From a virus (lineage: Duplodnaviria; Caudoviricetes), in the IMG/VR virus record IMGVR_UViG_3300005253_000675, positions 1 to 63,816 of that record: a stretch of 63,816 nucleotides of DNA; one strand, 5' to 3'. Position numbers and translations under genes: made by a program. The notes under the pieces are model-generated. The model was not told the origin of the DNA, did not search any database, and saw nothing but the letters and a program-made list of their open reading frames with translations. Below are positions 91 through 24,691 of this stretch, one piece after another; within the stretch, counting starts at the first letter, position 1; each line of letters opens with the position of its first letter.

Positions 91-2745
91 TCACGCCTCC
101 GCCCTCTTGGGCAGGTCAGCCCGCCGCTTGCGCCAGGTGCCCTCCTCGGCTGGCTTGCAGCTGCCCCAGTCCTCTCCAAACTCGATGTCGACCACCACCG
201 GGACGCGGAGCTGAAAGTCCTCCATCTTCTCGCGGAGCACCCGGTTGAACCGGCCCCGGGCGCGCTTCTCCCGGGGCACGCTGAAGTCCAGCTCGTCGTG
301 GACGGTCAGGTGCATGGGCGTCGTCTCCCAGTCCAGGCCGTCGGCGACGGAGATCATCGCCTTCTTCATCAGGTCGGCCGCGCTGCCCTGGAGCAGGGCG
401 TTGAGCGCCTTGTGGGTGTGGGCGTAGCCGCGGCCGCGCTTCTCGAACCGGCGCTTCCGCCCGCCCCAGGTGACGATGTAGCCGCGCTGGTTCGCCCGGC
501 GGTCGGCGCGGTTGTAGAGGCGGCTCACCTCGGGCAGGCGGTCGTGGTACTCCTCCAGGAGGAGCGCCGCCTCGTGGAGGCTGACGCCGAGCTTCGCGGC
601 CATCAGCTTCTTGCCCATCCCGTAGACGATCCCGAAGTTGATGTTCTTGGCCGGGCGTCGCGGGATGCCGACCAGCTCCGCGCATATCTGGTGGAAGTCG
701 ATGTCCGGGTCCTCGTTGTAGGCCCGGGCGAGCTGGCCGCCGGCGTAGTGGGCCAGGTACCGGAACTCGATCTGAGAATTTTTACTAAACACTCCACAAG
801 AGAGGGCGAAGTTGTGGTCCCCCTCCACCGTGACGTGGTAGACGACTCTCTCTCCAGCTGGCTCGACGCTGACGACCCGGTGGTTCAGGGCAGCGGGCGC
901 ACCGCACCGGCGACAGGAGACGCAACGTACATTTACCTGACTCGGCCACTGATAGAACGCGTCACCGCAGTCCACGCAGGTTTGATCTTCCTTGCCGCCT
1001 CGCCAGTTGGGGTTGCCCTTACCCGCGTAGGAGCGGCGCCGTCTCAGGGCCGACCTGAGCACGCGAAGGCGCGTCTGCTCGTCGACGGTCTTGAAGGCGT
1101 GGAGCGCCCTGTGCTCCGTCTGGTCGACGTAAGCCAGGTTCCTCGGCGAGTTGTTTCGCTTGGCCTCGTCTACGTGGTGGACCTCCGCGCCCACCGGCTT
1201 GGGCCCGTGGTACGCCTCGGCCACCAGGTCGTGGGTATAGCGGTACTCGAAGGCGGAGGCGCTGTAGACGGTCTCGTAGCCAGCCCCGGCGGAGCCTCGA
1301 CGAAAGGCGGCTAAGCCGACGCCGGGCCTCAGGTCCTCAACCCTCACCTTGCCGCCGTCTCTCAGCACCATCTCGTGGTCGCCCGTGGCCGTGAACGACC
1401 CCTCGTTGTCGAGCGTGACCTTGAACGTGGGGGCCCTTCCGATCCGCGCCCACCTCGACACCTCTCCCCAGGACACCCGGCCCGCGTGCCAGGTAAACAC
1501 CCTGTCGCCGGCCGTCAGGCTGTCGATTCGCCTGGGCCCGGTGAGGGTCTCCACCATCGTCTCGCCCACCAGACAGTAGTCGGCCTTCTCCCAGACCTGC
1601 GTCCGGCTCGCCGGGACGTAGAGCCCGCGGATCAGCGGCGCCCACTCCTCGTCCCGGGCCGGCACGTTCTGGAGGTTGAGGCCGCCGCCGCTGGAGAACC
1701 GGCCGGACCGGGTGCCGAACCGCGGGTTCCGGAGCGGGTGGAACTCGCCGTGGATGACGCCGTTGGGGTCGACGTTCGCGAGGACGTAGTTGTCGATGAA
1801 CGTGCCCTTGAAGTGCTTGAGCTTCTTCATCCGCGTGATCGCCTCGGCGACCGGGTGCTGCACGTACTCCAGGTCGTCCTTGGTGATCGACGCGTTGCCC
1901 TCCGTGATGCCCTTCTCCAGCATCTTCTCCGTGGGCTGGTTCCGACGGTACGGGAGGCCCAGCTTGTCGAACAGCGTCGCGAGCTGGGCCGTGCTGGTGT
2001 AGCTGACGTCACCGAAGTCACTCTCCCACTTCCGCTCGGCCCGGGTGAGGAGCCGGCCCAGCTTATCCTTCAGGGCCAGCGCCTTGTTCACGTCCACCGG
2101 CACGCCGACCATGTGCATCCGCAGGAGGATCGGGATCAGCCGTAGCTCCATCTCGTAGACGTCGGCCAGTCCCTCCTCGCCCAGCCGCGGGCCGAGGTGG
2201 TCACCGAGCCCCAGCGTGATGCGGCTGTCCCGCTTCGCGTAGGGCTCGACCACGTCGCCGTGGGCCCGCCAGATGTTCTTGGCCTGGGCCTTGCGGGTGG
2301 CGCCGCCGCCGAACGCCTGCGAGCAGAAGTCCCACAGCTCGTCGCCCTCCTTCTCCATCTCGATGTGGCGCTGACCCAGGCCGTCGAGCGTGAGGTCCGG
2401 CTCCAGCTCGTTCAGGAGCGCGGCCATGAACCCGGTCTCCTCCACCCGGGCTCGCGGGAACGGGTGCTCGTGGCCCAGCTCGTAGGCCAGCATCCGGAGG
2501 TCGAAGCCGGCGGAGTGCATGAAGACGGTGAGGTCAGAGCGGTTCACCTCCCGCTTGACCCACCGGAGGACCTCCCGCTTGGAGCAGTTGTTGCCGCCCA
2601 TCTCGTGGCCCCAGCGGTAGTAGTGGTCGGAGCCGTCCGGCAGCGAGACGGAGAGCCCCACCAGCCGGTCGTCGTACGTCACCCCGGTCGTCTCGGTGTC
2701 CAGGCCGATCCGATCGACGCGGGCCAGGTCGACGAACTCAGCCAC
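91..2745 (-). CDS. polA: DNA polymerase family A (3'-5' exonuclease + polymerase), intein-interrupted
   Basis: ExoI LDTETTG, TRSGRFSS..NLQNVP, motif A ADY|SQIE, motif B AKNINFGIVYG, motif C VHDE. Confidence 0.97.
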   Translation of the reverse strand: MAEFVDLARVDRIGLDTETTGVTYDDRLVGLSVSLPDGSDHYYRWGHEMGGNNCSKREVLRWVKREVNRSDLTVFMHSAGFDLRMLAYELGHEHPFPRARVEETGFMAALLNELEPDLTLDGLGQRHIEMEKEGDELWDFCSQAFGGGATRKAQAKNIWRAHGDVVEPYAKRDSRITLGLGDHLGPRLGEEGLADVYEMELRLIPILLRMHMVGVPVDVNKALALKDKLGRLLTRAERKWESDFGDVSYTSTAQLATLFDKLGLPYRRNQPTEKMLEKGITEGNASITKDDLEYVQHPVAEAITRMKKLKHFKGTFIDNYVLANVDPNGVIHGEFHPLRNPRFGTRSGRFSSGGGLNLQNVPARDEEWAPLIRGLYVPASRTQVWEKADYCLVGETMVETLTGPRRIDSLTAGDRVFTWHAGRVSWGEVSRWARIGRAPTFKVTLDNEGSFTATGDHEMVLRDGGKVRVEDLRPGVGLAAFRRGSAGAGYETVYSASAFEYRYTHDLVAEAYHGPKPVGAEVHHVDEAKRNNSPRNLAYVDQTEHRALHAFKTVDEQTRLRVLRSALRRRRSYAGKGNPNWRGGKEDQTCVDCGDAFYQWPSQVNVRCVSCRRCGAPAALNHRVVSVEPAGERVVYHVTVEGDHNFALSCGVFSKNSQIEFRYLAHYAGGQLARAYNEDPDIDFHQICAELVGIPRRPAKNINFGIVYGMGKKLMAAKLGVSLHEAALLLEEYHDRLPEVSRLYNRADRRANQRGYIVTWGGRKRRFEKRGRGYAHTHKALNALLQGSAADLMKKAMISVADGLDWETTPMHLTVHDELDFSVPREKRARGRFNRVLREKMEDFQLRVPVVVDIEFGEDWGSCKPAEEGTWRKRRADLPKRAEA
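778..1575 (-). mobile_element. Intein (266 aa) with HNH homing endonuclease in PolA motif A
   Basis: Starts CLVGETMV right after ADY and ends HNF..GVFSKN before SQIE; block B TGDH; internal HNH (VHHVDEAKRNNSPRNL). Confidence 0.95.
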
Positions 2746-2986: not shown

Positions 2987-3830
2987 GGATCGCCTCCAGC
3001 TTGGCCAGGAACTCGTCGGCCTCGCGCCCCTCCAGGCCGTACTCCCGCACCTCGTCTCGCGCCAGGCTCCAGTTGGGCGTGAGCACCAGGCCGCGCAGCG
3101 CCAGCAGCTCCGTTCGGCTGAACGTGACCGCCGCGGTACGGTAGTCGTGGAAGGCGTCGCTGATCGTGGGGAACGCCAGGTGAAAGAAGTAGAGGACCAC
3201 GTTGGCGTACTCGCGGATCTCCTCCTGGGCGTGGCTGTCCAGGCGCAGCCCCAGGAAGTGCATGAGGTTGTGGACGTCGATCTTCCAGAACGCCAGGGTG
3301 TAGGTCGAGAGCGGCAGGTCCTTCCGCGCCTGCTCTCGGGCCACGCCCGCGTCAAGCCGGCTCTTATATATCCACCGCGCTCGTTGCTGGAAGGCCACCT
3401 CCTCCTGGCTCAGCCGCTCGCCGACGTTCGACGCCACGCCCTGATCCGAGCCCTGCCTGTTCGCCTGGCTCTGGAGCCGCCAGGCGTCAGGCGCCGTCAC
3501 GGCCGTGTCGTCGATCGCCGCGGTATACCGCGTCGAGTACTCGTTGACGCTGGCCGTTCGGTGCCGGATCCACTGGCGCCAGGTGTCCATCGGGACCTTG
3601 ACGATGAAGACCATCTCGCACTGCTCGAAGGGCGTCGTGTGGTGGTGCCGCATCATGTAGCGCAGGAGGCGGCGGTCACCCGCCTCGTCTCGCTCGCCGT
3701 GCCTCCCGTAGCTGATGCGGGCGGCGTCCACCACCCGGTCGTCGTCGCCCATCACGTCCACGAGCTGGACGTATCCGTGGGTGCCCACGTCGACCTTCTC
3801 GCCGAGGGCGTCAGTCGCCATCTGATTCAT
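2979..3830 (-). CDS. thyX: FAD-dependent thymidylate synthase
   Basis: AARISY, HHTTPFE, RQWIRHRTASVNEYSTRY (RHRx7S), EQARKDLP, HAQEEIR. Confidence 0.97.
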   Translation of the reverse strand: MNQMATDALGEKVDVGTHGYVQLVDVMGDDDRVVDAARISYGRHGERDEAGDRRLLRYMMRHHHTTPFEQCEMVFIVKVPMDTWRQWIRHRTASVNEYSTRYTAAIDDTAVTAPDAWRLQSQANRQGSDQGVASNVGERLSQEEVAFQQRARWIYKSRLDAGVAREQARKDLPLSTYTLAFWKIDVHNLMHFLGLRLDSHAQEEIREYANVVLYFFHLAFPTISDAFHDYRTAAVTFSRTELLALRGLVLTPNWSLARDEVREYGLEGREADEFLAKLEAIRG

Positions 3831-5068
3831 CGTTCTCCTCCTTGTTTTATCTCTGCTGTCTGGGTGGCTTGAAGATACGTCTGTGCCGCCTGAAGGAAAG
3901 CCCCGTCGTCGAGCATACCGAGCGAGACGTTACACCCGCGACACAGGAGGCCGCGCACCTCCCCGGTTCGGTGATCGTGGTCGATCACCAACCTACGGTC
4001 GTCACGTTGGCAGATCCCGCAGAGGCCGTTTTGACTCAGCAGAAGTAGTTGATAGTCGTCTGGCCCCAGGTCGTACTTGATCAGGATCGAGCATCGTCGA
4101 CATCGGTGAGATGAGGCGGTCTGGTGTCCCTGCCAGTAGTGCTCATCGGTACGCGGCAGCACGTACCTGCAGGTGTTACACAACAGTCCGTCAGAGTGAT
4201 GAGGTTGAAGCTGGTCTTGATACCATCGCGCTGAGGCTGGGAGGTTGGTGCTCATGCTCCCTTTTCTCCCGGGCACGCCGGCCGCGGTTCTCGCCCATCT
4301 GACTACCCGCGCCCACCGCTGCTCGGCGCGGTCACCGCTGTCCACCTGAAGACGACGAGGTACGACGAACATGGGCGGTAAGTCCTCGGCGCGGCTTGGC
4401 TCGTGGAGCGCGTTTAGCGCGTCCAGGTCACGATCTACGTAGGCGTGTAGGCTTCCCGTTTGATGCAGGTACCAACCGACGTCAACCGCCAGGGCGTAGG
4501 CCACTGCATGTTGAAGGTTTGTGAACATCCAGGCGTCGTAGGGCAGGCCCCAGAAGACGTCGTTTGACCGCATCGTAGCGATCATGTCGAGTCGGCCGTT
4601 CCTGATGAAGAACTGAAACTGGAGCGTACAGGGAATGTCCTTGGACGGTAGCCTGTTGTCCCACGGGCGCCAGATCAACGCGCAGGCTTGACGCGTGTCG
4701 GGGTCTCGTCCCAGCAGCTCGATGAGTCGGGGAAACTGCTCGTAGGTGCGGGGACCGTAGGCGCCGCGCAGACGGTCACTCTCAACGAACTGTGTGAAGT
4801 TCTTCGTGATCGAGATCAGCTGGGCTGCGTCTGAGAGCCCGGCTATCAGCTGTACCGACTCGGCGGCGCCGATCTCTAGTCGTAGCTTACGCCCCGTCCC
4901 GATCGGCACGACGCGTGAGGGGTCGTGAATCAGAATGGTCACGCCTCGTAGCTCCCGGGTCCTGAGGCCTCGGGGTGAGACCTCGTCGCCCTCATCTAGG
5001 ACCTTGCGTACGATCGCGGCGTAGCTGTCCGTCAGGCTGTCGACCTCGAAGTCAGCGACGAAGGGCAT
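3827..5068 (-). CDS. Thymidylate-synthase-fold dCMP hydroxymethylase/methylase-like enzyme with C-terminal endonuclease VII domain
   Basis: GAYGPR, DTRQA, KDIPCT, MRSNDVFWGLPYD, GSLHAY; C-terminal CGIC..IDHDHRTGEVRGLLCRGCN. Confidence 0.9.
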   Translation of the reverse strand: MPFVADFEVDSLTDSYAAIVRKVLDEGDEVSPRGLRTRELRGVTILIHDPSRVVPIGTGRKLRLEIGAAESVQLIAGLSDAAQLISITKNFTQFVESDRLRGAYGPRTYEQFPRLIELLGRDPDTRQACALIWRPWDNRLPSKDIPCTLQFQFFIRNGRLDMIATMRSNDVFWGLPYDAWMFTNLQHAVAYALAVDVGWYLHQTGSLHAYVDRDLDALNALHEPSRAEDLPPMFVVPRRLQVDSGDRAEQRWARVVRWARTAAGVPGRKGSMSTNLPASARWYQDQLQPHHSDGLLCNTCRYVLPRTDEHYWQGHQTASSHRCRRCSILIKYDLGPDDYQLLLLSQNGLCGICQRDDRRLVIDHDHRTGEVRGLLCRGCNVSLGMLDDGAFLQAAQTYLQATQTAEIKQGGER

Positions 5069-5951
5069 CGATGGCCTCCTTGATGGGGTAGGGCTCGCCG
5101 TGATGGAAGCGCTTGGCGAACTGAGGGTGGTCCATGGGCTCGTGCTCGAAGCCGTGGGACGTCAGCCAGTCCTGGGCCACCTTGCCCAGCCCGATGATCC
5201 CGAGGGGGTTCAGCCGCTCGATGAAGCTGGGGTCCTCGGGCTGGCCGTCCGGCCTGAGGGCGTTGACCCAGTACAGCCAGCGCTCGTCCACGCCGGTCAG
5301 CTTCTCGGAGAGCCACGCGCTGCAGCCGTTGGTGCTGACGAACGGGAGCGGCGGGCCCGGCAGGTTGACGTTGATCCCGTTGGCCCGCTCGCCGACGAGC
5401 AGGACGGAGGTGTGCTCGAACCAGCCGACGCCCGGGCCGTGGTTGCCGGGCGAGCGGATCGTGACCAGGTCGTCACACAGCCGCTCCACCGTGTGACGGG
5501 TCCAGTCGTACGTGGTCGTGGGCAGCATCGACCCCTGCGTCTTGTAGAGCCGGTAGACCCACTCCAGCTGGTCGAGGGTGTCGAGCATCTCCAGCTGCTC
5601 GCGAGCCAGCCACGCGTCCCGGACGTGCGGGTCGTAGGGCGGGTAGCAGACGACCTGGACCACGCCGCCCAGGCCGAGGAGGGCGCGCTCCAGCACGCGC
5701 TGACCGTCGTCGCCGAGCATGTCGTGCTGCCGGAAGACCGGGCCGTAGATCCGCTCGCCCAGGTGGAGCCGGTCGCAGAGCACGTGCGACTGCTGGTACA
5801 GGTTCCGGGACATCGCGCCCAGCGTCTCGGTCAACACGTTCTGATGGTACGGTCCCTGATGGTGGCGGTTGACGCCGATCCAGCGGTAGGCCAGGTCGTC
5901 GGCCAACGTGCTCTTACCGGCGCCGTCGGGGCCTTCAACTATCGTCAGCAT
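5052..5951 (-). CDS. dNMP/thymidylate-kinase-like P-loop domain fused to UDG-superfamily-like domain
   Basis: IVEGPDGAGKST, CDRLHLGERIYG; C-half VLLVGER..PF..IIGLG..HPQF. Confidence 0.75.
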   Translation of the reverse strand: MLTIVEGPDGAGKSTLADDLAYRWIGVNRHHQGPYHQNVLTETLGAMSRNLYQQSHVLCDRLHLGERIYGPVFRQHDMLGDDGQRVLERALLGLGGVVQVVCYPPYDPHVRDAWLAREQLEMLDTLDQLEWVYRLYKTQGSMLPTTTYDWTRHTVERLCDDLVTIRSPGNHGPGVGWFEHTSVLLVGERANGINVNLPGPPLPFVSTNGCSAWLSEKLTGVDERWLYWVNALRPDGQPEDPSFIERLNPLGIIGLGKVAQDWLTSHGFEHEPMDHPQFAKRFHHGEPYPIKEAIDALRR

Positions 5952-6666
5952 CTGTCGTCTCCTTTTCTAGGAACGTCACGGGCTTGCCTCGTGAGCGGGC
6001 GTAGTCGATCTCGGCCTGGGTGGACGAGCCCACGTAGCCGCCCACGTTAACGACGCCCACCTCGTCAGCCAGGTCGATCTTGTGTAGGTGGAGCTGGTCC
6101 AGCTCCGCCTTCGTGGTGGCGTCCACGTCCTCCTCGTCAGCGTGGGAGAAGAACCCCACGCTGAGCACCATGAAGCCCGCGAGGGTGAAGTGCCGGTTCC
6201 AGCGAGCGTAGGCCTCCTTGAACTTCGTGGACCCGCAGAGGCACACGATCCTGGGCCCGGCCGAGTAGACCGGCGCGGGGACGCCGCTCGCTACGGCCCG
6301 GTCGATGATGCGCGCCGAGCGCGGCGGCTCCCAGCCCTCGGGCTTGCCCAGGTCGAACCCGCCGTAGGCGCGCTCGCTGACCACGCGCTCCTTCGACATG
6401 TTGGCTCGCTGGACGTCGGCCCAGAGCGCGTGCCAGGGGAGGCCCATCATCACGGCGGTGCCCATGGCCACGACCACCAGGTCGATCAGCGCGTCTGCCG
6501 CCTCGGGCAGGTCGTCCCGCTGGCAGGCCGCGTCGAACTCCAGCAGCTCCTCGCGCATGAAGCCCGACCGAAAGAGCTGGTCGGTCGTGGACAGGAACGT
6601 GGGGCCCGTCTCGATCGGCAGGCGGTGGTGCTGGTGCATCCGGTAAATGGAATCGAAGTTGGTCAC
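5935..6666 (-). CDS. All-alpha NTP pyrophosphohydrolase (MazG/PRA-PH-like) fused to nucleoside-deoxyribosyltransferase-like domain
   Basis: EELLEF..ADALIDL..NMSK..KPEGW; C-half CLCGSTKF..KIDLAD..GYVGSST.AEIDYA. Confidence 0.8.
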   Translation of the reverse strand: MTNFDSIYRMHQHHRLPIETGPTFLSTTDQLFRSGFMREELLEFDAACQRDDLPEAADALIDLVVVAMGTAVMMGLPWHALWADVQRANMSKERVVSERAYGGFDLGKPEGWEPPRSARIIDRAVASGVPAPVYSAGPRIVCLCGSTKFKEAYARWNRHFTLAGFMVLSVGFFSHADEEDVDATTKAELDQLHLHKIDLADEVGVVNVGGYVGSSTQAEIDYARSRGKPVTFLEKETTDADDS

Positions 6667-7763
6667 GTGATGATCTCCTCAGTGTGGTCCTTCTCCAGGT
6701 CGACGACGAACCGCCGACCGCGTTGACGCCGGCCGCGTTCCACGGCTCGGCGAAGGTTGTGGCCCAGCCACTCGCCGACGGTCGGCAGCACCGCCTGCGC
6801 CACCTCTGGGTAGCACGCCTCGGGCGTGGGCGGCGAGAACTCGTAGTCCACGGGATAGCCGCAGAGGACCTGCGACTCCTTGACGCTGAGCCAGCGGTCC
6901 TCGGTGGGATGAACGAGGTGGGTGCCGCCCATCATGGTCTTGCACGGCACGTTCGGCCGCAGACGTCGGTACGTGAACGCGGGCCGACCGATGACGGCGC
7001 CCAGCTTGTTGCGGGGCCAGGTCTCCTCGGGCCCGACGGTGGCGCGCATCTTCGCCTCCCAGTGGAGCCGGAGCGCCTGGCCCGGCGGACAGCCCTCCAT
7101 CATCGCCCGATCCCCGGCGCTCTCCATGTGACGGAAGGCGACGTGGGCGCGACACCTGAGGAGACCGGCCGCTCGCCAGGCCCGCGTGACCGAGACCTGC
7201 TGGTCAGGCTCCAGGTGAGGGTACTCCCAGTCGATCTTGACGCGGTGCGCCACGAAGAAGAACCGGCGGCGCTGCTGGGGCAGCCCGACGTGGACGCCGT
7301 TCAGGAGGACGTAGCTCACGGAGTAGCCCAGCTCCACCGCCTCCTCGGCCAGCTCGTCACACAGCTCGCGTCCCCGGTGGAAGGCGCCCTGCACGGACTC
7401 CCAGCACCAGACCGACGGGCGCAGGTACCGGATGGCGTCGAAGGCGTTGTAGACGCAGCTGACCCGGGGGTCGTGACGATAGTTGTCCTTGAAGTCGTGG
7501 TCGATCATCCGCTTGGGTCGGATGCCGGCGCCCGACCACGGGGCGCAGGGCGGGTTGCAGAACACCACCTTCACGCCGCGGCCGCGGTACGCGTCGAAGG
7601 GCCACGTCTCCGGGTTCGTGTGGACCTCGATACCGGGCATGTTCTGCCGGACCGTGTCCACGCCGAACGGGCCGTCCTCGAGATGGCCCAGCACGTCGAA
7701 CCCGGCGGCGCGCATGCCGATGGAAAAACCGCCTCCAAAAATATATATTCCGAGCGCGTTCAT
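6663..7763 (-). CDS. Atypical C5 cytosine DNA methyltransferase
   Basis: Catalytic NPPC, WESV (motif VI), PQQRRRFF (VIII), RWLSVKE..GYP (IX); divergent motifs I and X. Confidence 0.85.
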   Translation of the reverse strand: MNALGIYIFGGGFSIGMRAAGFDVLGHLEDGPFGVDTVRQNMPGIEVHTNPETWPFDAYRGRGVKVVFCNPPCAPWSGAGIRPKRMIDHDFKDNYRHDPRVSCVYNAFDAIRYLRPSVWCWESVQGAFHRGRELCDELAEEAVELGYSVSYVLLNGVHVGLPQQRRRFFFVAHRVKIDWEYPHLEPDQQVSVTRAWRAAGLLRCRAHVAFRHMESAGDRAMMEGCPPGQALRLHWEAKMRATVGPEETWPRNKLGAVIGRPAFTYRRLRPNVPCKTMMGGTHLVHPTEDRWLSVKESQVLCGYPVDYEFSPPTPEACYPEVAQAVLPTVGEWLGHNLRRAVERGRRQRGRRFVVDLEKDHTEEIIT

Positions 7764-7921
7764 CTCGGGGCCTTTTCGAGCAGCTTCTTCTTCTGTTCAG
7801 CGTGTCTTTTACAGAAACATCCGTACGAGACGGTCCCGCTGCTCCGGACCTCGTAGGTAGCCTGCCTGAGACAGCCGGACGCTTGACACGTATCCAGTAA
7901 CCTCACCAGGTAGAACGCCAT
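7760..7921 (-). CDS. Small Cys/His protein (53 aa)
   Basis: MAFYLVRLLDTCQASGC..FCKRH; GAGG RBS; ATGA coupling to the MTase. Confidence 0.55.
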   Translation of the reverse strand: MAFYLVRLLDTCQASGCLRQATYEVRSSGTVSYGCFCKRHAEQKKKLLEKAPR

Positions 7922-7931
7922 GATCGCTACC

Positions 7932-9443
7932 TCAGTGATGAGAGAATAGGGGGTTGTCGAAGCCGATGAGCTGAAGGGTTTCTTTCGCTCTGGTCAGGCC
8001 GACGTAGAAGACGCGTCGCTCGTGGTCCGGCTCGCGCTGGATCTCGCGCTGGATCACCCGGCTCAGGTCGGTCAGGAGGACGACGTGATCGGCCTGGCCG
8101 CCCTTGGCCGCGTGGATCGTCGAGAGGAAGACCTTGGGGGCGTCCGTCAGCGCCTTGGCCCCGTGGTGCCGGACCACCCGCCGGATGTAGCTGACCTCGT
8201 CGTCGGGGATCTTGTCCAGCGCCTCGAACCACGGCTCGTCCGTGAGCAGGCCCAGCTCCTCCCGTGCCGTGTCCAGGTCCACCTTCTCGCGCTCGCATCG
8301 CTCCAGCCGGGCGCGAGCGTCCAGGGAGACGCCGCGGCCCACGGTCATCGCCTCGTAGACCTCGTGCAGCTGGGCGGGCGAGACGCGGCCCTGCTTCCGC
8401 AGGCTCTCCCACAGCACGATGGGGTGCGACCAGGCGCCGCCGACGGTCGGCCGCTGGCCGTGGCCGAAGGGGACGCCCTCGCTCCGCAGGCGCGCCTCGA
8501 CCGCCTGGCCGAGGTAGTGGTTCCGGTACAGCACCAGGTACGAGCCCTCGCGGTCGTAGTCCACGTTCTCCTGGCTCATCAGCCAGCGGACCTCGCCGGC
8601 CTCGTCGCGGGGCTTCCACTCCTTGGGCTGCCGGCGCCGGATGCGGCTGACCATCTGGCCGGCCAGCTCGTGAACCGCGGCGGGGACGCGGTAGCTCTGG
8701 CCGAGCACCTCGACCTCCCCCTGCAGCGTCAGCAGCTCCTCGGGCTCGGCGCCCGCCCAGGCGAAGATCGCCTGGTCGTCGTCGCCCGCCACGTACACCC
8801 TCTCGGCGTCGGCCGCGAGCCGCTCCAGCGTGCGCCACTGGAGCCAGCTCAGGTCCTGGGCCTCGTCCACGAGGACGACGTCCACCGGCAGCGGGCCCTC
8901 GACGTTGATCAGGAGGTCGGTGAAGTCGAGCAGCCCCTCGTCCGTCTTCCACCTCGCGTAGGTCTCGCAGAAGTGCCGGGTGATGAAGAGGTCCTCGTCC
9001 TCGCGCCACCCGCGATAGCCCTCCTCGATCGTCTGACCGCGGTGCCGGCGGAGGTGGTCGAACGTCAGGAACCGGTCGCCGCGGAGGTTGCCGTTGGTCA
9101 TGGTCAGACCGGACTCCGTGGCGCGGCTCGGCCCCGTCATCTCCATGCCGATCAGCTCCGAGAACTCTCGCAGCTCGCCGTGGTGGATCATCATCGGGCC
9201 GCTGACCTCCAGCTCCCGGTAGGCGATGGAGTGCAGCGTCCGGAAGAACGGCATCTGCTCCTCGGTGAACCCGAACCGCTCGACCGTCCGGCTGACCGCC
9301 TCGCGGCGGGCCTTCGTGGTGAACGTGACGTAGGCGACTCGTTCAGGGGGAGTGCCTTCTTCTAGCGCCTCTTCGAGAAGGTTGAGGAGCGTGGTTGTCT
9401 TCCCCGTGCCCGGCGGGCCGAAGATCTTGGTCACCTGGTTCAT
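7932..9443 (-). CDS. UvrD/Rep SF1 helicase
   Basis: GPPGTGKT, VDEAQD, GDDDQAIF, QSYR, STIHAAKG, FYVGLTRA. Confidence 0.95.
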   Translation of the reverse strand: MNQVTKIFGPPGTGKTTTLLNLLEEALEEGTPPERVAYVTFTTKARREAVSRTVERFGFTEEQMPFFRTLHSIAYRELEVSGPMMIHHGELREFSELIGMEMTGPSRATESGLTMTNGNLRGDRFLTFDHLRRHRGQTIEEGYRGWREDEDLFITRHFCETYARWKTDEGLLDFTDLLINVEGPLPVDVVLVDEAQDLSWLQWRTLERLAADAERVYVAGDDDQAIFAWAGAEPEELLTLQGEVEVLGQSYRVPAAVHELAGQMVSRIRRRQPKEWKPRDEAGEVRWLMSQENVDYDREGSYLVLYRNHYLGQAVEARLRSEGVPFGHGQRPTVGGAWSHPIVLWESLRKQGRVSPAQLHEVYEAMTVGRGVSLDARARLERCEREKVDLDTAREELGLLTDEPWFEALDKIPDDEVSYIRRVVRHHGAKALTDAPKVFLSTIHAAKGGQADHVVLLTDLSRVIQREIQREPDHERRVFYVGLTRAKETLQLIGFDNPLFSHH

Positions 9444-9529
9444 TGGTCGCGCCACTCCTTCCAGAGGTCGAGCACGGCCACCACGAACGTGAACAGCGCG
9501 GCCGCGAAGTTGATGAGCGACCTGGTCAT
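9440..9529 (-). CDS. Micro membrane peptide (29 aa)
   Basis: MTRSLINFAAALFTFVVAVLDLW; ATGA overlaps on both sides. Confidence 0.5.
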   Translation of the reverse strand: MTRSLINFAAALFTFVVAVLDLWKEWRDQ

Positions 9530-9729
9530 CGGTCGCGCTGCTCTCGCCCGACCGCCTCGACGACCGCGTCGTCCAGGGCCATGTACTCGTCGGCCGTCAA
9601 GGGCAGCCACAGCTGGTCGCCGATCTCGACGGACCGGAGCGTCTGTATGATGATCACGCTGATGGCGATCAGCAGGCCGACGACCACCACGACCGCGGCT
9701 ATGAATGCCTCAAAAATCAGGTCCGTCAT
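9526..9729 (-). CDS. Small membrane protein
   Basis: N-terminal hydrophobic helix. Confidence 0.6.
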   Translation of the reverse strand: MTDLIFEAFIAAVVVVVGLLIAISVIIIQTLRSVEIGDQLWLPLTADEYMALDDAVVEAVGREQRDR

Positions 9730-11269
9730 GTCCCTTCTCCTTGTAGTCCTGGGTCTGCTCCTTGGTGGGCGTCGGCATCCACCAGACGGCCAGGTCCGCG
9801 CCGCCGACCTTCAGGGTCGTGAAGCCGCCGCCCTCGTTCCTGATGACGCTCCAGATCCCGACGCTGTTCATGTCCCGGGCGCGACGGTTCTCCAGGAACT
9901 CGATGAGGGCGAGGGAGCGGAAGTAGACGCGGCCCTTGTGCTCCCAGGGCTTGTTGTCCAGGAGGTCCTCGTCGGTGTCCGACTTCATCCGCAGCATGAG
10001 GAACTCCATCAGCCGCAGGAGGAACTGGCCCAGCGGGCCGGCGTCGTCGGGCACCTCCACCACGATGTGGGTGGCGATCAGGTCGCGGACCTTCGTGTCC
10101 CAGTCCACGTTCTTGAGCTGGGGCACCTGGATCTTCGTCTTGCGGAAGGCCGTACGCTTGAACAGGGTCATGGAGCCCAGCTCGTCGGGCGTCAGCGTCA
10201 TCCGCCGGCCCGCCAGCTCCAGCTCGTATAGCGGGTCGTCGCGGCCGTTCTCGAAGCTGACCAGGCGGCCGAGCGGCGGGAAGGCGGCGCGGGCCGCGAC
10301 GCGGCTGAAGCGCTCGATCCCGAACTCCCGCTTCCGGCAGAGCGTCTTCTTGCAGAGCGTCTCGATCGGCGCGTCCTTGCACTTGTAGACGTAGTCGCTC
10401 CGGGTCAGGCTCCGGACGATGTTCTCGATCTCGTCGGCCGGGAGCGACGGGGTGACCACGCCGCTGTTCTCGTTGTAGTCCTCCAGGACCTTCTCCCAGC
10501 TGTCGGGGAACTTCAGCTTGAGGAAGATCCCGATGTTGTGGAGGGCGCCGTTCCGCGAGCCCTTGCCAATCTGCGTTTGGTGTAGGGTCTGGAGGCAGGG
10601 CGGCCCGTCCAGGAAGAAGGCGTCGTGGTCGACGCCCAGCTGGACCTGACGCACGTCCAGCTCGTTCTCGGTGAGCCGCATGGACTCGGCGTGATCGAGG
10701 AACGCCTCGAGGCTCATCGCCTCGCCGGCCTCGTCCACGCAGTAGCGGGTGGTGTCGTCGCTCCCGAAGTACGGTAGGTTGAGCCAGTTGCCCTTCTGCC
10801 CGGGCGAGAGCGCGATCTGCTTGGGAAAGTATTCCAGGGGCGGGGCGTTCCCCTCGTCGTCCGCTGGGTTCGTCAGCCCCAGCAGCTCGCTCCACCGCTT
10901 CATCTTGGCGAGCAGGTGGACCGGCTTGATCGGCTCCATGAAGAACAGAAACAGGTGGGCGCCGCCGCTCTTGGAGCGACAGATGACGAACGGCAGGCCG
11001 AGGACGCCCACCTCCTGGATGAGCGACGCGTGGTCCGTCTCGTCGTCGTCTAGGTCGATGCAGCCCCAGTGGCATGTGCCCGCGTCGCTGATCGGTACGA
11101 TGCCGATGCCCGTCTTGTCCCCGGCCAGATGCCGGTCCCACGCCCCGTCGGGGATGGGACCGGCCTTGGTGTAGGCGTTCAGCTTCGCCCCTGTCTTGGG
11201 GTCGGCCTCGTACTGCCCGTACCAGTCCTCGTTGCCGCGGAAGAGACGCTCGAAGCGCTCTCTCGACAT
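9710..11269 (-). CDS. Archaeo-eukaryotic-type primase with PriCT-like domain
   Basis: WGCIDLD, RSKSGGAH, GNWLNLPY, PPC, G.RN. Confidence 0.85.
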   Translation of the reverse strand: MSRERFERLFRGNEDWYGQYEADPKTGAKLNAYTKAGPIPDGAWDRHLAGDKTGIGIVPISDAGTCHWGCIDLDDDETDHASLIQEVGVLGLPFVICRSKSGGAHLFLFFMEPIKPVHLLAKMKRWSELLGLTNPADDEGNAPPLEYFPKQIALSPGQKGNWLNLPYFGSDDTTRYCVDEAGEAMSLEAFLDHAESMRLTENELDVRQVQLGVDHDAFFLDGPPCLQTLHQTQIGKGSRNGALHNIGIFLKLKFPDSWEKVLEDYNENSGVVTPSLPADEIENIVRSLTRSDYVYKCKDAPIETLCKKTLCRKREFGIERFSRVAARAAFPPLGRLVSFENGRDDPLYELELAGRRMTLTPDELGSMTLFKRTAFRKTKIQVPQLKNVDWDTKVRDLIATHIVVEVPDDAGPLGQFLLRLMEFLMLRMKSDTDEDLLDNKPWEHKGRVYFRSLALIEFLENRRARDMNSVGIWSVIRNEGGGFTTLKVGGADLAVWWMPTPTKEQTQDYKEKGHDGPDF

Positions 11270-11275
11270 CCCAGG

Positions 11276-12106
11276 CTAGAAGCCCGGAGCGCCGTCTTCG
11301 ACCTCTGCCTCGGGTATCGCCTCGCCGTCCATCCGGCGCCAGTCCACCTGGCCGGCTCCGGCGTCCATCAGCTCCTCGAAGCCCCTGGCTCTGGGCACCA
11401 GCTCGCCCGCCTCCTCCATGTCGAAGAGGTCGACCTGGCACTCCGGCTTCTTCAGCACGAAGAACCGGCCCTTGTCGTTGACCTTCTCCACGGTGGTCGC
11501 CTTCCAGACGCTCCACCAGCGGGGCAGGTCGGCGTGGACCACGCCGTCGATCTCTCGGCGCTGGCGGCCGATGTCCGTGTTCCACAGGCGCGAGGGCGTG
11601 AGCCCCGTCATCTTCAGGGGGAAGATGGCCTCGCTCCAGCTGCCGTCCGGCAGCCGTACGAGGACGGCCTGCTGGTGGGTGTCCACGAGGTCGTGCTTGT
11701 CGAGGTCCTTGCAGTTGGCCTCGGCCTCCCGCATGTCCGGCGGGTGGAGCCCGACGAACCCGCCGCCCTCCTTCCGCTTGATCCACTCGATGATGTGGCG
11801 GCTGAAGTGGCAGGGGATGATCATCACGCCCTCGTCCCCGTCCCAGATGGCGCCGCTCACGGACTCGTGGAACATGCCGGGCTCGGCGCCCTCCACGTAG
11901 GCGTCGTCCTTCTTCGCGACCTGGGGGCTGAGCGCCTGCAGGATGTTGAGGAACGGCAGGGCCATCTCGGCCTGGCCGACCTCCTTGCTCCCGGCGCCGG
12001 CGTAGGCGGTCGCCATCTCTCCCCTGCTCATGCCGCCGATGATGGCGGTGTCCGTCTTCTTCCTCGCGACGCTCTTGGCGGGCTTCTTTTTCCTTGGTGT
12101 GGCCAT
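11276..12106 (-). CDS. Putative ssDNA-binding protein
   Basis: LPFLNILQALSPQV, GAEPG, acidic tail ending in F; located in the replication module. Confidence 0.6.
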   Translation of the reverse strand: MATPRKKKPAKSVARKKTDTAIIGGMSRGEMATAYAGAGSKEVGQAEMALPFLNILQALSPQVAKKDDAYVEGAEPGMFHESVSGAIWDGDEGVMIIPCHFSRHIIEWIKRKEGGGFVGLHPPDMREAEANCKDLDKHDLVDTHQQAVLVRLPDGSWSEAIFPLKMTGLTPSRLWNTDIGRQRREIDGVVHADLPRWWSVWKATTVEKVNDKGRFFVLKKPECQVDLFDMEEAGELVPRARGFEELMDAGAGQVDWRRMDGEAIPEAEVEDGAPGF

Positions 12107-16642: not shown

Positions 16643-17026
16643 ATGACCGACCCGATCGAGTACAACGGCAAGCCGATGAGGTTCGAGCCAATCAACATCA
16701 CCACCCTGGACATGCTTCGGCTCATGCGCCGAGGCACGCCTCAGGTGGTGCTCCTGGAGCCCGGGGACGCGACCAGGTACACCCTGCTGGCGGTCCCCCT
16801 GGGCACCGACGTGGCTTCTCACCTGGATGACTTTGGCATCCCCCGTAGGGAGGCGCACAACTACCTGTTCGTGAGCAAGCTGGCGGCTGAGGAGTGCCCA
16901 GGGACCTGGCTGCCCTTCGGTTCGGACCTGACGGTGGGCACCTACGACGTCGTACCACTCACGGACAACGAGTGGAGCAGGCGGTTCCTGGCCTGGTGGT
17001 TCACGAGGCTGTACGAGCTACTCTAG
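16643..17026 (+). CDS. Hypothetical protein
   Basis: Coupled ORF in the plus-strand early operon. Confidence 0.7.
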   Translation: MTDPIEYNGKPMRFEPINITTLDMLRLMRRGTPQVVLLEPGDATRYTLLAVPLGTDVASHLDDFGIPRREAHNYLFVSKLAAEECPGTWLPFGSDLTVGTYDVVPLTDNEWSRRFLAWWFTRLYELL

Positions 17027-17041
17027 ACAGGAGACAGACAG

Positions 17042-17452
17042 ATGACCAAGCCGAGATGGACCCCGGAGCTCTACCGGGCCGACGCGATCCCCGAGGGAGA
17101 GCGCTTTACCGTGGAGGAGGAGAGCCTGGGCCGGATGCACTACGCCCTGGAGGGCCGCGCCGTCAGGATGGCACTTCAGGCCGGCGCGGAACGCGTCACG
17201 GTGGTGGAGCTGGACCGCGACGTGATCGCCCACGTGGCCCCGTACCTTGACCCTCGTCGCGTCGCCGTGGTTCAGGGGGACGCGTTCATCCTCCGGCACC
17301 CGGTCGGGAGCCGCTGGTCCGTGGTCTGGCACGAGCTGTGCGAGGACAACCTTCCGCTGATGACCAAGCTTCACCGGAAGTTCGGCGGCCGGTGCGACTG
17401 GCAGGGCAGCTGGAGCCGAGAGTTCCTGGAACGGAGGAGGCCGAGATGGTAG
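17042..17452 (+). CDS. Class I SAM-methyltransferase/spermidine-synthase-like fragment, motif I missing
   Basis: VTVVELDRDVI, VVQGDAF; no GxGxG. Confidence 0.55.
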   Translation: MTKPRWTPELYRADAIPEGERFTVEEESLGRMHYALEGRAVRMALQAGAERVTVVELDRDVIAHVAPYLDPRRVAVVQGDAFILRHPVGSRWSVVWHELCEDNLPLMTKLHRKFGGRCDWQGSWSREFLERRRPRW

Positions 17453-18021
17453 CCCAGGCGTCGGACTGGGTCTACCTCCACGCGGTCTGCCACCCCGGCG
17501 CCGGCACGTGGCTGCGGCTCGGACCCAACGGCGCCCACGTCCTGGAGTGCAAGGAGTGCCGCCAGATCGTCACCGCGTTCCGGGTCCTGAGCGGCGAGGC
17601 CGAGAACATCACGCACGAGCCGGGGCTGACGTACGAGGAGGCGGTGGAGCCGTTCTTCGCTCCCGAGGTCGGAGTGGTCTGCCACAACTGCGAGGCGGTG
17701 TTCACCTTCTCTCCGTCAGTACAACTGGCGGTCGAGGCGGGCTGGCTCCAGAGCGACTCGACGACCTGGGCCTGCCCGTCCTGTCGATCGAAGGCTATCC
17801 TTGACGCCTTGCCGCCGGACTACGAGCCAGGGCAGTGTAGGGCTCGCACCAAGGAGGGCTGGCGCTGTAAGCGGTCCGCGGCCGAGGGCCATGACATGTG
17901 TCGCCTACACCTGCGCACGGGCGGCGGGATCTGCGGCGCGGCCCACGACAGCGACCTGGGTCTCCAGATCTGTCGACGAGCCGCCGGACACAAGGAGGGC
18001 TGCGACTATGAGCCGATCTAG
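17446..18021 (+). CDS. Multi-Zn-finger protein
   Basis: Several CxxC pairs and CRARTKEGWRC..CRLH. Confidence 0.65.
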   Translation: MVAQASDWVYLHAVCHPGAGTWLRLGPNGAHVLECKECRQIVTAFRVLSGEAENITHEPGLTYEEAVEPFFAPEVGVVCHNCEAVFTFSPSVQLAVEAGWLQSDSTTWACPSCRSKAILDALPPDYEPGQCRARTKEGWRCKRSAAEGHDMCRLHLRTGGGICGAAHDSDLGLQICRRAAGHKEGCDYEPI

Positions 18022-18247
18022 CGGCGACGTACGGTGCCGGTTCACGGTGACCCTGGAGTTCGACATCACGGTTCAGGCCAACGACCCGGAGGTGGGTTTA
18101 CAAGAGGCTTTGACAAGAGCCGGTGAGGAACTCGGTGGCTACAATTTTGTAGAGGCCACCGATGTGAGGCTGGACTGGACCGAGGACGGCCGAGAGTGGA
18201 AGCCTGGAACAACCGGGAGGGGGCTTGAGACGGTCTACAACCACTAG
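18008..18247 (+). CDS. Hypothetical protein
   Basis: GGAGG RBS, overlapping start. Confidence 0.55.
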   Translation: MSRSSGDVRCRFTVTLEFDITVQANDPEVGLQEALTRAGEELGGYNFVEATDVRLDWTEDGREWKPGTTGRGLETVYNH

Positions 18248-18425
18248 TGCCGGGAGACAGACTGATGCCGACGATGACGACGGACCGAGACGGACATCCA
18301 TGGAAGGCGTACCCCAGCGGCCGGATCCTCTGCGCCGCGACGACGCCCCTGCACGACGCTCTCCTGGACGACGGCACGTGCGACTGCCTCATCGCATCCT
18401 ACACGTGGCCCCTACGGAGGCGGTC

Positions 18426-18674
18426 GTGAGCTGGGGCGTGTGGTGCGCCCGGACGGGCGGCGCGTGGCTGAGGGAGGACGGCGAGGAGTGGACGGCCGTC
18501 ACCGAGGAGGAGGCGGTCGTCAAGGCGCAGGAGACGAGCCTCAGCGCGTACGAGACCCTCGTGATGGCGGGACGTGAGAACCCGCTGACCTACCGGGCCC
18601 GACTGTACGACGGTCGGGCCGCCAAGAGAGAGATCTACGAGACCCTGAGAACGAGGAGAGAGACCGATGGCTAG
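18426..18674 (+). CDS. Hypothetical protein
   Basis: GGAGG + GTGA coupling. Confidence 0.55.
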   Translation: MSWGVWCARTGGAWLREDGEEWTAVTEEEAVVKAQETSLSAYETLVMAGRENPLTYRARLYDGRAAKREIYETLRTRRETDG

Positions 18675-18841
18675 AGGCGACCAGATCCCGATGTTCAGGC
18701 CACGACCCGCTACGCTCCTAGAGGCAGCCCAGTGCGAGCTGGGCTACGCGGAGCCGCTCCAGAGCAGAACCGAGGGCGAGCGCACGCCAGAGCTGGCCAA
18801 GGAGCCGCCACGCGTCCAGCGAGCGATCTACGAGGCCCACC

Positions 18842-19117
18842 ATGAGTGATCTTCCGACGCGGTTCGGGTTTCTCGAGACCGGGATGGTGGTCCTTCTAAA
18901 GGTTGACAAGGCAGAAGGCTTTGACGAGGAGCCGGTCATCCTAGTCGAGGAATCAGGGGAGACGACCTGGGTGTACGACGATGGTGACGGGAACATGCTC
19001 GAGGTTCCCACGAACCAGCTTCTAGCGGGCCGCGTGATCGAGCCTCTCGACGAGTACACCGAGGCCTGGGCCGCGATGCTTAGGCGCGAGAAGAGGAGGT
19101 TGAGGATCGTGCGCTAG
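18842..19117 (+). CDS. Hypothetical protein
   Basis: Last ORF before the terminator. Confidence 0.6.
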   Translation: MSDLPTRFGFLETGMVVLLKVDKAEGFDEEPVILVEESGETTWVYDDGDGNMLEVPTNQLLAGRVIEPLDEYTEAWAAMLRREKRRLRIVR

Positions 19118-19146
19118 GACTCTCCTGTCCCCAGCGGCGCGGTCGG

Positions 19147-19187
19147 CCCCCTGAACCAGCGGCATCGGTTCAGGGGGGTTCTTTGTT
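19147..19187 (+). terminator. Rho-independent terminator
   Basis: CCCCCTGAACC/GGTTCAGGGGG stem + TTCTTTGTT at the convergence point. Confidence 0.85.
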
Positions 19188-19354
19188 CCGCGAGGGCTTG
19201 GGGTCAGCAGGTCGCGGAGCCGCTCCAGGGTCTTTCGCCTGAGGACGACCACCCGTTCCTTCCTATGGGAGAGCGTCACGCGGTCCTCGCTGTCGTGGAG
19301 CCGGACCTCGAAGCGGCCGGCGCTCAGCACGCGCTCCGTCCTCAGCTTGGCCAC

Positions 19355-19606
19355 CTAGGCATCACCCTTGTGCCAGCCGAGCGGCAGATCCCAGACCTTA
19401 TCCTCGTACGCGCTCCCCATGCCGTGGCCAGGGAAGGCGATCTTTACGATGGAGAACGTTACCTCCACGAGCGCGTCGCACCAGCAGCACCGGGCCGTTA
19501 GCCGCGTTGTGGCCTCGCCTATCGTTCTATGGTGCCGGTGGATCTCATGGCCGCAGTGAAAGTCGTCGTCATCTCGGGGCTTGGGGCAGAATGGGTTCTT
19601 GGCCAT
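19355..19606 (-). CDS. Small Cys/His protein
   Basis: TGATG coupling; HCGH, CCWC. Confidence 0.55.
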   Translation of the reverse strand: MAKNPFCPKPRDDDDFHCGHEIHRHHRTIGEATTRLTARCCWCDALVEVTFSIVKIAFPGHGMGSAYEDKVWDLPLGWHKGDA

Positions 19607-19707
19607 CACATCCTTGGGGCGGTCAGCATCATGAACCCAAGATACATTAACGCAATTAAGAATGTTACCATCAGCAGGGTCACTGCCACCACCAGCCATG
19701 GTCTCAT
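19606..19707 (-). CDS. Micro membrane peptide (33 aa)
   Basis: MRPWLVVAVTLLMVTFLIALMYLGF; ATGA coupling. Confidence 0.55.
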   Translation of the reverse strand: MRPWLVVAVTLLMVTFLIALMYLGFMMLTAPRM

Positions 19708-19787
19708 GTTGCGATCTCCCAGAAGGCCACGCCCAACACGAAGCCCAGCGCCACCGTCAGCCAAAAGTATGCGTTCCAGGATCTCAT
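19704..19787 (-). CDS. Micro membrane peptide (27 aa)
   Basis: MRSWNAYFWLTVALGFVLGVAFW; ATGA coupling. Confidence 0.55.
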   Translation of the reverse strand: MRSWNAYFWLTVALGFVLGVAFWEIAT

Positions 19788-19933
19788 TCGAACACCATCA
19801 CCTTGTGGCACTCCACGTGCCCACGGATGTCTACCTCGCAGCGGTAGGTCACGGTATACCTAAGTTCGACGGGAGAAGAGCAGGCAACTCCCCACAGCAC
19901 AAACCCCAGTATGAGACAGAGTCGCGTAGACAA
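19784..19933 (-). CDS. Small putative lipoprotein (49 aa)
   Basis: AAAGGAGG + TTG; hydrophobic stretch ending GVAC. Confidence 0.5.
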   Translation of the reverse strand: MSTRLCLILGFVLWGVACSSPVELRYTVTYRCEVDIRGHVECHKVMVFE

Positions 19934-19952
19934 GGTGCCTCCTTTAGATAGG

Positions 19953-20438
19953 TTACTCATACCTCTCTCCTAGATCAACCCAGGTCCCGTCCGTCACCTT
20001 GGCGTCACCCCGGTTCGCGAAGATGAGGGCGTCGAGCTCTCGGGCCAGCAGGTTCTTCACGTCCTTCAACGCCATCTGAGCCAGCGTGAGCTCCCGTAGG
20101 TTCTCACGTTGGATGACGTCGGGCACGTACCAGGGAAGCACGAGGACGTCCCTGTCGACGAGGACGACCACGAACCCGCGACCGCCGTCGTCCTCGCACC
20201 AGTCGCGGAGGTGGGCCCGCTGCTCCAGGGTGAGCCCCAGCGTCAGGGGCGTCGCGTCGCGGACCGGCCAGTGCGGCACGTACTTCAGCTCCAGCCAGGC
20301 CATCTGGCCCGGCGGCCGGTAGGCCACGTCGGGGACGCCCGCCCGCGTGCTCGTGCCCACCTTCCAGGCGCGTCGCCCGAAGTGCGTCGAGGTGAGGGCC
20401 GGCTTGACGTGGTTCGCCCAGAACGTCTCCTCGGTCAC
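19953..20438 (-). CDS. PD-(D/E)xK nuclease, VRR-NUC/Holliday junction resolvase-like
   Basis: E..FW, GVPD, WLELK, LT.EQ. Confidence 0.8.
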   Translation of the reverse strand: MTEETFWANHVKPALTSTHFGRRAWKVGTSTRAGVPDVAYRPPGQMAWLELKYVPHWPVRDATPLTLGLTLEQRAHLRDWCEDDGGRGFVVVLVDRDVLVLPWYVPDVIQRENLRELTLAQMALKDVKNLLARELDALIFANRGDAKVTDGTWVDLGERYE

Positions 20439-20523
20439 AGCAGCTCGTCCAGCGTGAGAAGCACGAAGACGACGACCACCCAGACGGCTGCCCCGACCAA
20501 CGCGACCCCAACTATGTTCGCGA

Positions 20524-21206: not shown

Positions 21207-21220
21207 GTCAGCCTCCTTGG

Positions 21221-22076: not shown

Positions 22077-22319
22077 GTGAGAGCCCGGATATTCTTCGAT
22101 CGCTGTTCTATCCGCATTATCTCAGTCTGCGCCTCAAGGCAAGCGCGCGAAGATTTTCAAGTTCCTCGGCACGTTCTGGGCTCAGTGCTTCGCCTGGATT
22201 TAGGTAGCGGTCACCGTTGGGATCACGAGCGCGAACGCCAAACCCAAGCCGATGCGTTAGAGGATGCTTGCGTTCTCGGTTGCGTTCCACCAGCGCGCGT
22301 AATTCGTGCTCTTGAAGTC

Positions 22320-24690: not shown

Positions 24691-24691
24691 G

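Follow-up and report, generated by a model that had tools for sequence, protein, structure and literature searches.

The viral contig IMGVR_UViG_3300005253_000675 (Duplodnaviria; Caudoviricetes) carries, on its minus strand at 3827..5068, a gene in which an enzyme of the thymidylate synthase (TS) fold is fused in frame to an intact HNH nuclease of the EndoVII type. All positions refer to the window, that is, the whole stretch of 63,816 nt that was analyzed, which is a linear contig of 66.7% G+C with an estimated completeness of 84%. We favor, at a probability of roughly 0.45, the reading that the fused gene is a horizontally moving cassette whose active nuclease behaves like a homing endonuclease. 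In the proposed mechanism, the TS half and the products of the kinase-like and MazG-like genes beside it would jointly provide 5-hydroxymethyl-dCMP, leading to phage DNA that contains 5-hydroxymethylcytosine (5hmC) in place of cytosine, and the nuclease half would be an active, probably dimeric, DNA-cutting module of the homing type. This module would cut related alleles that carry no nuclease, and repair would then copy the whole TS-nuclease gene across. With the nuclease welded to the TS gene, the base-modification gene would be dragged along between phages.

The fusion was first noted in a preliminary description made from the DNA alone, and it is borne out here. The gene is a single open reading frame (ORF) of 413 amino acids plus stop, with no internal stop codon. 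Its product matches two Pfam domains, Thymidylat_synt (PF00303; residues 15-215, E 2.5e-19, 69.9 bits against a cut-off of 24.3) and Endonuclease_7 (PF02945; residues 328-400, E 1e-18, 67.4 bits against a cut-off of 23.6), and both were also recovered with PHROGs. The motifs CNTC (297-300), CRRC (323-326), CGIC (350-353), DHDH (363-366), RGLLC (372-376) and CRGCN (376-380) include all those named in the preliminary description. A TS-fold pyrimidine-C5 enzyme takes up residues 1-293 of the product, and a complete EndoVII module, made up of a Zn ribbon and an HNH core, takes up residues 294-405.

The junction between the domains is covered by contigs of three sequencing runs (two samples from one marine-sediment study) with no differences and no indels, and no frameshift or stop separates the domains; the contigs are assembled Logan contigs, not raw reads, and the window itself may derive from X1. 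Another 33 clusters of metagenomic proteins have the same architecture (with the window's own cluster, 34 of the 120 homologues listed, at 35-73% identity). When 1.84 billion representatives were searched exhaustively with HMMER, 22 of the top 150 at 50% identity clustering proved to have the HNH core. At the DNA level, the two domains share a single reading frame at two independent loci, L006 and L082. Any artefact that joins two separate genes, be it a chimeric assembly or an overlooked frameshift, would have to be reconciled with the clean junction in three runs and two samples, with the recurrence of the architecture and with both of these loci. No point was found in favor of such an artefact, and for practical purposes we regard it as refuted.

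The preliminary description took the TS half to be a base-modifying homologue, and the diagnostic residues place it in the cytosine (Asp) type. Its best solved relative is the CMP hydroxymethylase MilA, both by sequence (E 1.8e-18, ~25% identity) and by fold (Foldseek E 1e-19, TMt 0.73), with many TS structures also matched. The structures 9iqc and 9iqu, which are flavin-dependent 5-hydroxy-dCMP synthases, are among both the sequence and the fold matches, and T4-like gp42 models are among the matches in BFVD. Passages of PMC13326640 describe how, in E. coli ThyA numbering, N177D gives dCMP as substrate, L143D/E gives a hydroxymethylase, as in the T4 enzyme and MilA, and D169N marks the flavin-dependent 5-hydroxy-dCMP synthases. 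When these positions are placed through MilA and TS alignments (Asp144 via MilA), the fused protein has Asp178 at N177, Asp144 at L143 and Asp170 at D169, which is thus kept, and the catalytic Cys147 is present. Cys147, Asp170 and W282 are invariant in the family alignment. The Asn that ThyA carries at E. coli position 177 is therefore not present, with Asp178 in its place, while the control SPO1 gp29, annotated as a dUMP hydroxymethylase, has Asn in the 178 column.

Other features set the TS half apart from ThyA. All seven NCBIfam TS models score far below their cut-offs (for example, 73.4 against 174.55 bits and 56.8 against 327 bits). The C-terminal segment of ThyA that closes over the folate was not found: the Pfam match ends at profile position 216 of 266, and beyond it lies a family-specific helical extension, with helices at 239-262 and 278-290 in the AlphaFold2 (AF2) model. 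In this phage dTMP is supplied by ThyX. On these residues and matches, the TS half has the signature of a dCMP 5-hydroxymethylase and not of a thymidylate synthase, and the modified base that it makes is probably 5hmC. The catalytic core (residues 1-215; 4424..5068, minus strand) is delimited by the PF00303 and MilA matches, the invariant columns and Foldseek, and holds the key residues Asp144, Cys147 (4628-4630), Arg167-Ser168, Asp170, Asp178 (4535-4537), His208 and Tyr210. It is followed by the variable helical extension (residues 216-293; 4190..4423, minus strand), which ends in W282-Y-x3-L-x-P.

It had also been suggested that the present allele replaced an ancestral, possibly dUMP-type (Asn) gene. 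We found no support for such a replacement. The residue is Asp in 116 of 120 relatives, which are all those that could be read, and in 128 of the 150 best representatives of the HMMER scan, where the other 22 were not matched by the pattern; not one Asn was read in either set. Thus, there is no Asn/Asp allele contrast among the relatives to explain.

The genes around the TS half are consistent with its predicted activity. The minus-strand operon reads, in order, a Dcm-like C5-methyltransferase, a MazG-like protein with an extra domain, a P-loop kinase-like protein with a uracil-DNA-glycosylase (UDG)-like domain, the fused gene, ThyX and PolA. The kinase-like gene adjoins the TS homologue also in L006 (32% identity), which belongs to a second, distant phage, and in the nearest isolated phage, DSL-LC01 (26%). 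An Asp-type TS together with kinase-like and MazG-like genes would fit a T4-like route to 5hmC DNA.

The nuclease half begins well before its Pfam match. Stand-alone phage EndoVIIs, namely phiYeO3-12 gp13.5, Ralstonia phage DU_RP_I gp26 and L5 gp59, align from residue ~281-296 on (35-40% identity over 70-81%, with residues 281-413 as the query), and they share with the fused module the ribbon pattern C-x2-C...E-F/H-Y...C-x2-C; PHROG EndoVII profiles cover residues 288-405. Because stand-alone EndoVIIs carry the same ribbon, CNTC..CRRC is the Zn ribbon with which a complete EndoVII module normally begins, and its earlier listing as an element of its own is not upheld. An assignment of the ribbon to the TS protein was dropped on the same ground. 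The TS part proper ends at the W282 motif, precisely where the ribbon-less relatives P0065 and P0088 stop. The ribbon thus occupies residues 294-326 (4091..4189, minus strand), as placed by the stand-alone EndoVII alignment and PHROG, and the HNH core occupies residues 327-405 (3854..4090, minus strand), as placed by PF02945 and the alignment with T4 endonuclease VII. M273, preceded by GGGAG(N10), was considered as an internal start for a free EndoVII and was rejected, since it falls within the TS extension and precedes W282, a residue that the ribbon-less relatives also have. M273 itself is not conserved (Leu in P0002, Gly in P0003).

Residues 336-386 match residues 9-68 of T4 endonuclease VII (1e7d; E 8.6e-5), including DHDH and RGLLCxxCN, and C350, C353, C376, C379, D363, H364, H366 and N380 all align to their T4 counterparts. 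The Zn site is formed by CGIC 350-353 with C376/C379, and the catalytic residues are D363-H364-D365-H366 and N380. The exact pattern DHDH...RGLLCxxCN is present in 28 of the 34 fused proteins, and in four others the sole departure from it is a Cys or Asn in third place, as read by eye from the alignment. When the EndoVII module was modeled as two copies, the pairing score was 0.42, against 0.00 for the best of three controls, with contact agreement of at least 66% and partner pLDDT of at least 70. Among solved structures, 20 of 30 pairs of one chain and 1 of 23 single chains reach the pairing mark, and the prediction may reflect likeness to, or memory of, solved T4 EndoVII dimers. These results suggest that the nuclease half is probably active and dimeric.

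The fusion is rare, yet it is a real family. The search of isolated phages with tblastn matched 3106 of 50,697 records, none of them covering 80% of the protein, and the fusion is absent from this set. One fused locus was found among the 80 best loci of IMG/VR (L006), one among the 80 best of metagenomes (L082) and none among the 80 best of bacterial and archaeal genomes; no fused TS-EndoVII model was found in the BFVD viral structure set. A full-text literature search found no paper describing a TS-EndoVII fusion, although the supplements of PMC13326640, which lie outside that search, may list members of the clade. A paper on jumbo phages (PMC7824862) mentions TS and EndoVII, in its passages on these proteins only separately. 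Both domains belong to well-known families, and the novelty lies in their fusion, in the ribbon-only forms derived from it and in how its composition behaves. Since the nearest TS relatives among the 80 best bacterial and archaeal loci fall in Actinobacteria, the host of the phage is probably an actinobacterium. No match to other phages was obtained with a 12-kb megablast query, and protein-based IMG/VR scans with the fused protein or the kinase-like protein gave no close relatives for a comparison of the locus. The best match of an IMG/VR scan with ThyX had 52% identity and no further gene in common.

The relationships among the TS homologues point to an old association of the two domains. 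In a TS-core tree of 119 rows (quick IQ-TREE, with the fragment P0052 left out and the root not known), all 34 fused proteins fall within one clade of 81 rows, with a Shimodaira-Hasegawa-like approximate likelihood ratio test (SH-aLRT) support of 92. On this tree the label fused or unfused changes 14 times, and at least 6 of the changes are forced by starred branches. The ribbon alone, scored by hand as two CxxC after residue 250, is present in 38 of the 47 unfused members of the clade and in none of the 38 rows outside it. In all seven ribbon-only loci the gene stops 0-10 residues past the second CxxC, and no remnant of an HNH core was found downstream in any of the seven (best tblastn E 0.66). 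Decay is also seen in cores that are still present, as in P0029, and catalytic residues are lost in P0042 (DYDH) and P0046 (DHDA).

The nuclease modules tell a similar story. In a tree built on 141 columns, those of the 34 fused proteins make up one side of a branch that separates them from 42 stand-alone EndoVIIs, with moderate support (SH-aLRT 80). Pairwise identities of the TS and nuclease parts correlate (Mantel r 0.62, with none of 2000 permutations as high). The simplest history would be an old fusion of single origin, whose halves diverged together and whose HNH core was lost or decayed repeatedly, although gain and loss of the core are not formally separable on an unrooted TS tree.

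The survival of the ribbon invites a further explanation, in which the Zn ribbon, whether or not an HNH core follows it, serves mainly to anchor a nucleotide-making enzyme to replicating or branched DNA and nuclease activity is secondary. Retention of the ribbon after loss of the core, in the 38 unfused clade members counted by hand, speaks for such a tether, and the abrupt ends of the ribbon-only proteins, 0-10 residues past the second CxxC, suggest that the ribbon alone is worth keeping. However, strong conservation of the catalytic residues in the majority of fused forms argues that cutting matters, and DNA binding by the ribbon is putative. We therefore consider a tethering role very unlikely.

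The preliminary description had seen more A/T at the third codon positions of the fused gene than in the flanking genes, and a scan of G+C content at these positions (GC3) confirms it. The GC3 of the fused gene is 0.717, and that of its neighbors is 0.90-0.94 (ThyX 0.926, kinase-like 0.943, MazG 0.914, Dcm 0.896, PolA 0.927). It is low in every part of the gene (TS core 0.76, linker 0.75, ribbon 0.58, EndoVII 0.66), and codon use is shifted to CTA, CGA, CGT, TCA, CAA and GTA. The step in GC3 coincides with the ends of the gene, so that the ORF list, the two-domain Pfam match and the composition all mark out 3827..5068 as a unit. In L006, from a different phage whose fused protein is 39% identical, the fused gene has a GC3 of 0.72 and its neighbors have 0.90 and 0.95.

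For comparison with unfused genes, GC3 of the TS gene minus the median of the flanking ORFs was used, for loci of at least 58% G+C. This difference has a median of +0.017 for plain unfused TS genes (n=44) and of +0.043 for ribbon-only genes (n=7), and it is -0.196 in the window and -0.120 in L006. The lowest value among 32 unfused viral and metagenome loci is -0.067, while five unfused TS genes on bacterial-genome contigs also fall below -0.1. Because the whole gene is compositionally foreign, the fused gene would have arrived as a unit, and its composition fits arrival by horizontal exchange. Elsewhere in the window, at ~17000-27000, there is a block of ORFs with GC3 of 0.62-0.80, most of which have no counterpart in PHROGs, so that the fused gene does not stand alone as a compositional outlier of the genome.

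Taken together, several observations favor a horizontally moving cassette with a homing-like nuclease. The patchy presence of the nuclease and the existence of decayed and empty alleles fit the behavior of a homing endonuclease: the nuclease is sporadic among close relatives, in which decayed and clean ribbon-only alleles are both seen. Foreign composition, seen in two of three fused genes and at none of the 32 viral and metagenome loci without the fusion, counts in the same direction, as does a second HNH mobile element on the contig, an intein in PolA with lowered GC3. Going by the annotation, conserved structural modules house two of the nearest stand-alone relatives of the nuclease, the first of them between T7-type genes 13 and 14. 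The second, in Ralstonia phage DU_RP_I (L246) at 52-954, lies between two coding sequences both annotated as major head protein, and this EndoVII looks like a mobile nuclease that splits a capsid gene. The earlier proposal that a homing endonuclease carried the allele in thus stands as far as foreign composition, patchy nuclease and decayed copies go. It does not stand for the nuclease as a recent addition, because the two halves, joined once and long ago, have diverged together.

A number of points weigh against the homing-like cassette. DNA for the GC3 comparison is available from only three fused loci, and one of them, L082, has no contrast (0.897 against 0.895 for its neighbors). Ordinary mosaic exchange without homing could explain the foreign composition, given the other low-GC3 blocks. 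Congruent TS and nuclease trees are equally expected of a purely vertical, functional fusion, and the AF2 monomer model of the fused protein is compact (mean pLDDT 93.7, pTM 0.91), which suggests a co-evolved interface more typical of a functional fusion. The nuclease is lodged in no intron, intein or ORF of its own, and an in-frame C-terminal domain is an unusual lodging for a homing endonuclease. The gene fits neatly into its operon, in which it has a ribosome-binding site of its own and shares an ATGA with thyX. When the window is compared with L006, the fused gene has 39% identity and the kinase-like neighbor 32%, with no obvious excess for the fused gene. Finally, the nuclease is the sole EndoVII on the contig and so could be the phage's own resolvase.

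As such a resolvase, the EndoVII half would be the Holliday-junction nuclease of the phage and would be needed to clear branches from replicated DNA ahead of packaging, like T4 gp49. The obligately dimeric TS fold would give it a dimer scaffold and co-expression in a replication operon, and the fusion would be useful and not selfish. RusA, RuvC and PF01844 HNH were searched for on the contig and none was found, and all catalytic and Zn residues of T4 EndoVII are present. The module has no T4-type C-terminal dimerization domain, which the TS dimer could replace. Its predicted self-pairing (0.42 against 0.00 in the controls), which may be memory of T4 EndoVII, and the compact AF2 model (pTM 0.91) are also in keeping with this role, and the nuclease has long been conserved and has co-diverged with the TS core. 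A separate RuvC-like resolvase is annotated in the same module of DSL-LC01, which also counts for it.

Repeated loss of the HNH core is difficult to reconcile with a resolvase. In the records of four unfused relatives, two of them estimated to be 100% complete, EndoVII, RusA and RuvC gave no match in any; therefore either the nuclease is dispensable or resolvases go undetected. A complementary occurrence of RusA and RuvC gave no signal either way, with each found in 0 of 5 records searched. The foreign GC3 of the fused genes is left unexplained, and the contig, at 84% completeness, ends 90 nt past polA, so another resolvase may lie beyond it. Weighing both sides, we consider a phage-serving resolvase possible though on balance unlikely.

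The predicted base modification raises the question of whether the two halves work as a pair. In line with the alternative given in the preliminary description, the nuclease might cut ordinary-cytosine DNA of the host or of rival phages while the TS half protects the phage's own DNA through 5hmC, as a one-chain analogue of a restriction-modification pair that acts through the nucleotide pool. The presence in one operon of an Asp-type TS, a P-loop dNMP-kinase-like protein and a MazG/DR2231-like NTP pyrophosphatase would fit full replacement of cytosine, and the nuclease residues are intact. T4 employs EndoII and EndoIV against cytosine-containing DNA. However, we know of no EndoVII-family enzyme that tells modified from unmodified cytosine, and the sequence gives no clue on this point. 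The nuclease was lost repeatedly while the TS half was kept, which shows that there is no mutual dependence between the two activities, and the compositional foreignness is not accounted for. This arrangement is thus improbable. Much the same low likelihood attaches to a self-spreading version, in which the welded nuclease would cut genomes or alleles without the cassette (cytosine-containing rivals or ribbon-only TS alleles) and would drive the 5hmC pathway through phage populations. By analogy, such a cassette could be likened to a selfish restriction-modification system in one polypeptide, working through the dNTP pool.

The fused gene is tightly joined to its neighbors. A Shine-Dalgarno-like AAGGAGG (5075..5081, minus strand) lies 6 nt 5' of the ATG at 5068, within the 3' end of the upstream kinase-like gene, whose ORF (5052..5951) overlaps the start of the fused gene by 17 nt. 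At the other end, the TGA stop overlaps the thyX ATG in an ATGA (3827..3830, minus strand), and the ribosome-binding site of thyX, AAGGAGGAG, sits in the last codons of the fused gene. In L006 the corresponding region (7034-11854) holds a kinase-like gene, TS-EndoVII, two small ORFs and PolA, with no ThyX there.

The kinase-like gene (5052-5951, minus strand) encodes 299 amino acids, with an N-terminal P-loop part resembling dNMP and thymidylate kinases (phrog_761). Its C-terminal 140 residues have a UDG-like fold, which we treat as a lead only (Atlas score 0.89; TM 0.76 to a UDG cluster). Both L006 and DSL-LC01 encode the same two-part protein immediately 5' of their TS homologue. Upstream of it, the gene at 5935-6666 (minus strand) encodes a MazG/DR2231-like NTP pyrophosphatase (residues ~9-124) followed by ~120 residues without a family match, and the gene at 6663-7763 (minus strand) encodes a C5-cytosine DNA methyltransferase homologue, placed in the same operon as the predicted 5-hydroxymethyl-dCMP pathway. 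Downstream, the family A PolA gene (91-2745, minus strand) is interrupted at ~778-1575 (residues 391-656) by an intein with an HNH_3 endonuclease; the intein has a GC3 of 0.84, falling to 0.60-0.73 around the HNH part, and the exteins have 0.97. The contig opens, at positions 1-45, with long homopolymer runs of C and of G, located 45-90 nt past the polA stop; these can pair with each other and are either a strong hairpin or an assembly-end artefact.

If the nuclease promotes the spread of the gene, the fusion would provide a concrete route by which DNA hypermodification traits pass between phages. Such a route would bear on phage-host arms races and on the prediction of restriction-resistant phages. 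The intact, decayed and ribbon-only forms are in themselves a natural series for studying the gain and loss of a nuclease domain. If the nuclease is merely a resolvase that happened to fuse, the result would be a modest annotation note.

Each part of the fused protein can be compared with known systems. Like T4 gp42 and MilA, the TS half has the TS fold, the catalytic Cys, Asp at N177, an acidic residue at L143 and Asp at D169; unlike them, it has a helical extension of its own (216-293) and a C-terminal nuclease, and its product is predicted. With the flavin-dependent 5-hydroxy-dCMP synthases (RB69 gp48 and HY126 AfhB; 9iqc and 9iqu) it shares the TS fold and the dCMP-type Asp, whereas the D169N that marks them in the passages of PMC13326640 is absent and Asp170 is kept. 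The nuclease half has the HNH core of T4 endonuclease VII (gp49), CxxC...DHDH...RGLLCxxCN, with its Zn and catalytic residues. In contrast to the T4 enzyme, only T4 residues 9-68 of 157 align, the helical dimerization domain is absent, with the module ending ~27 residues past the core in the AF2 model, there is an additional N-terminal Zn ribbon, and the module is covalently joined to a TS-fold enzyme. The same ribbon-to-core module is found in the stand-alone EndoVIIs L5 gp59, phiYeO3-12 gp13.5 and DU_RP_I gp26, although these are separate genes of 129-164 amino acids on the opposite side of the tree branch. The module differs from free-standing phage HNH homing endonucleases in that it is predicted to pack fixedly on its carrier and in that its homing is putative. 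It resembles them, and the HNH intein of PolA, in its patchy presence, decayed copies and foreign composition.

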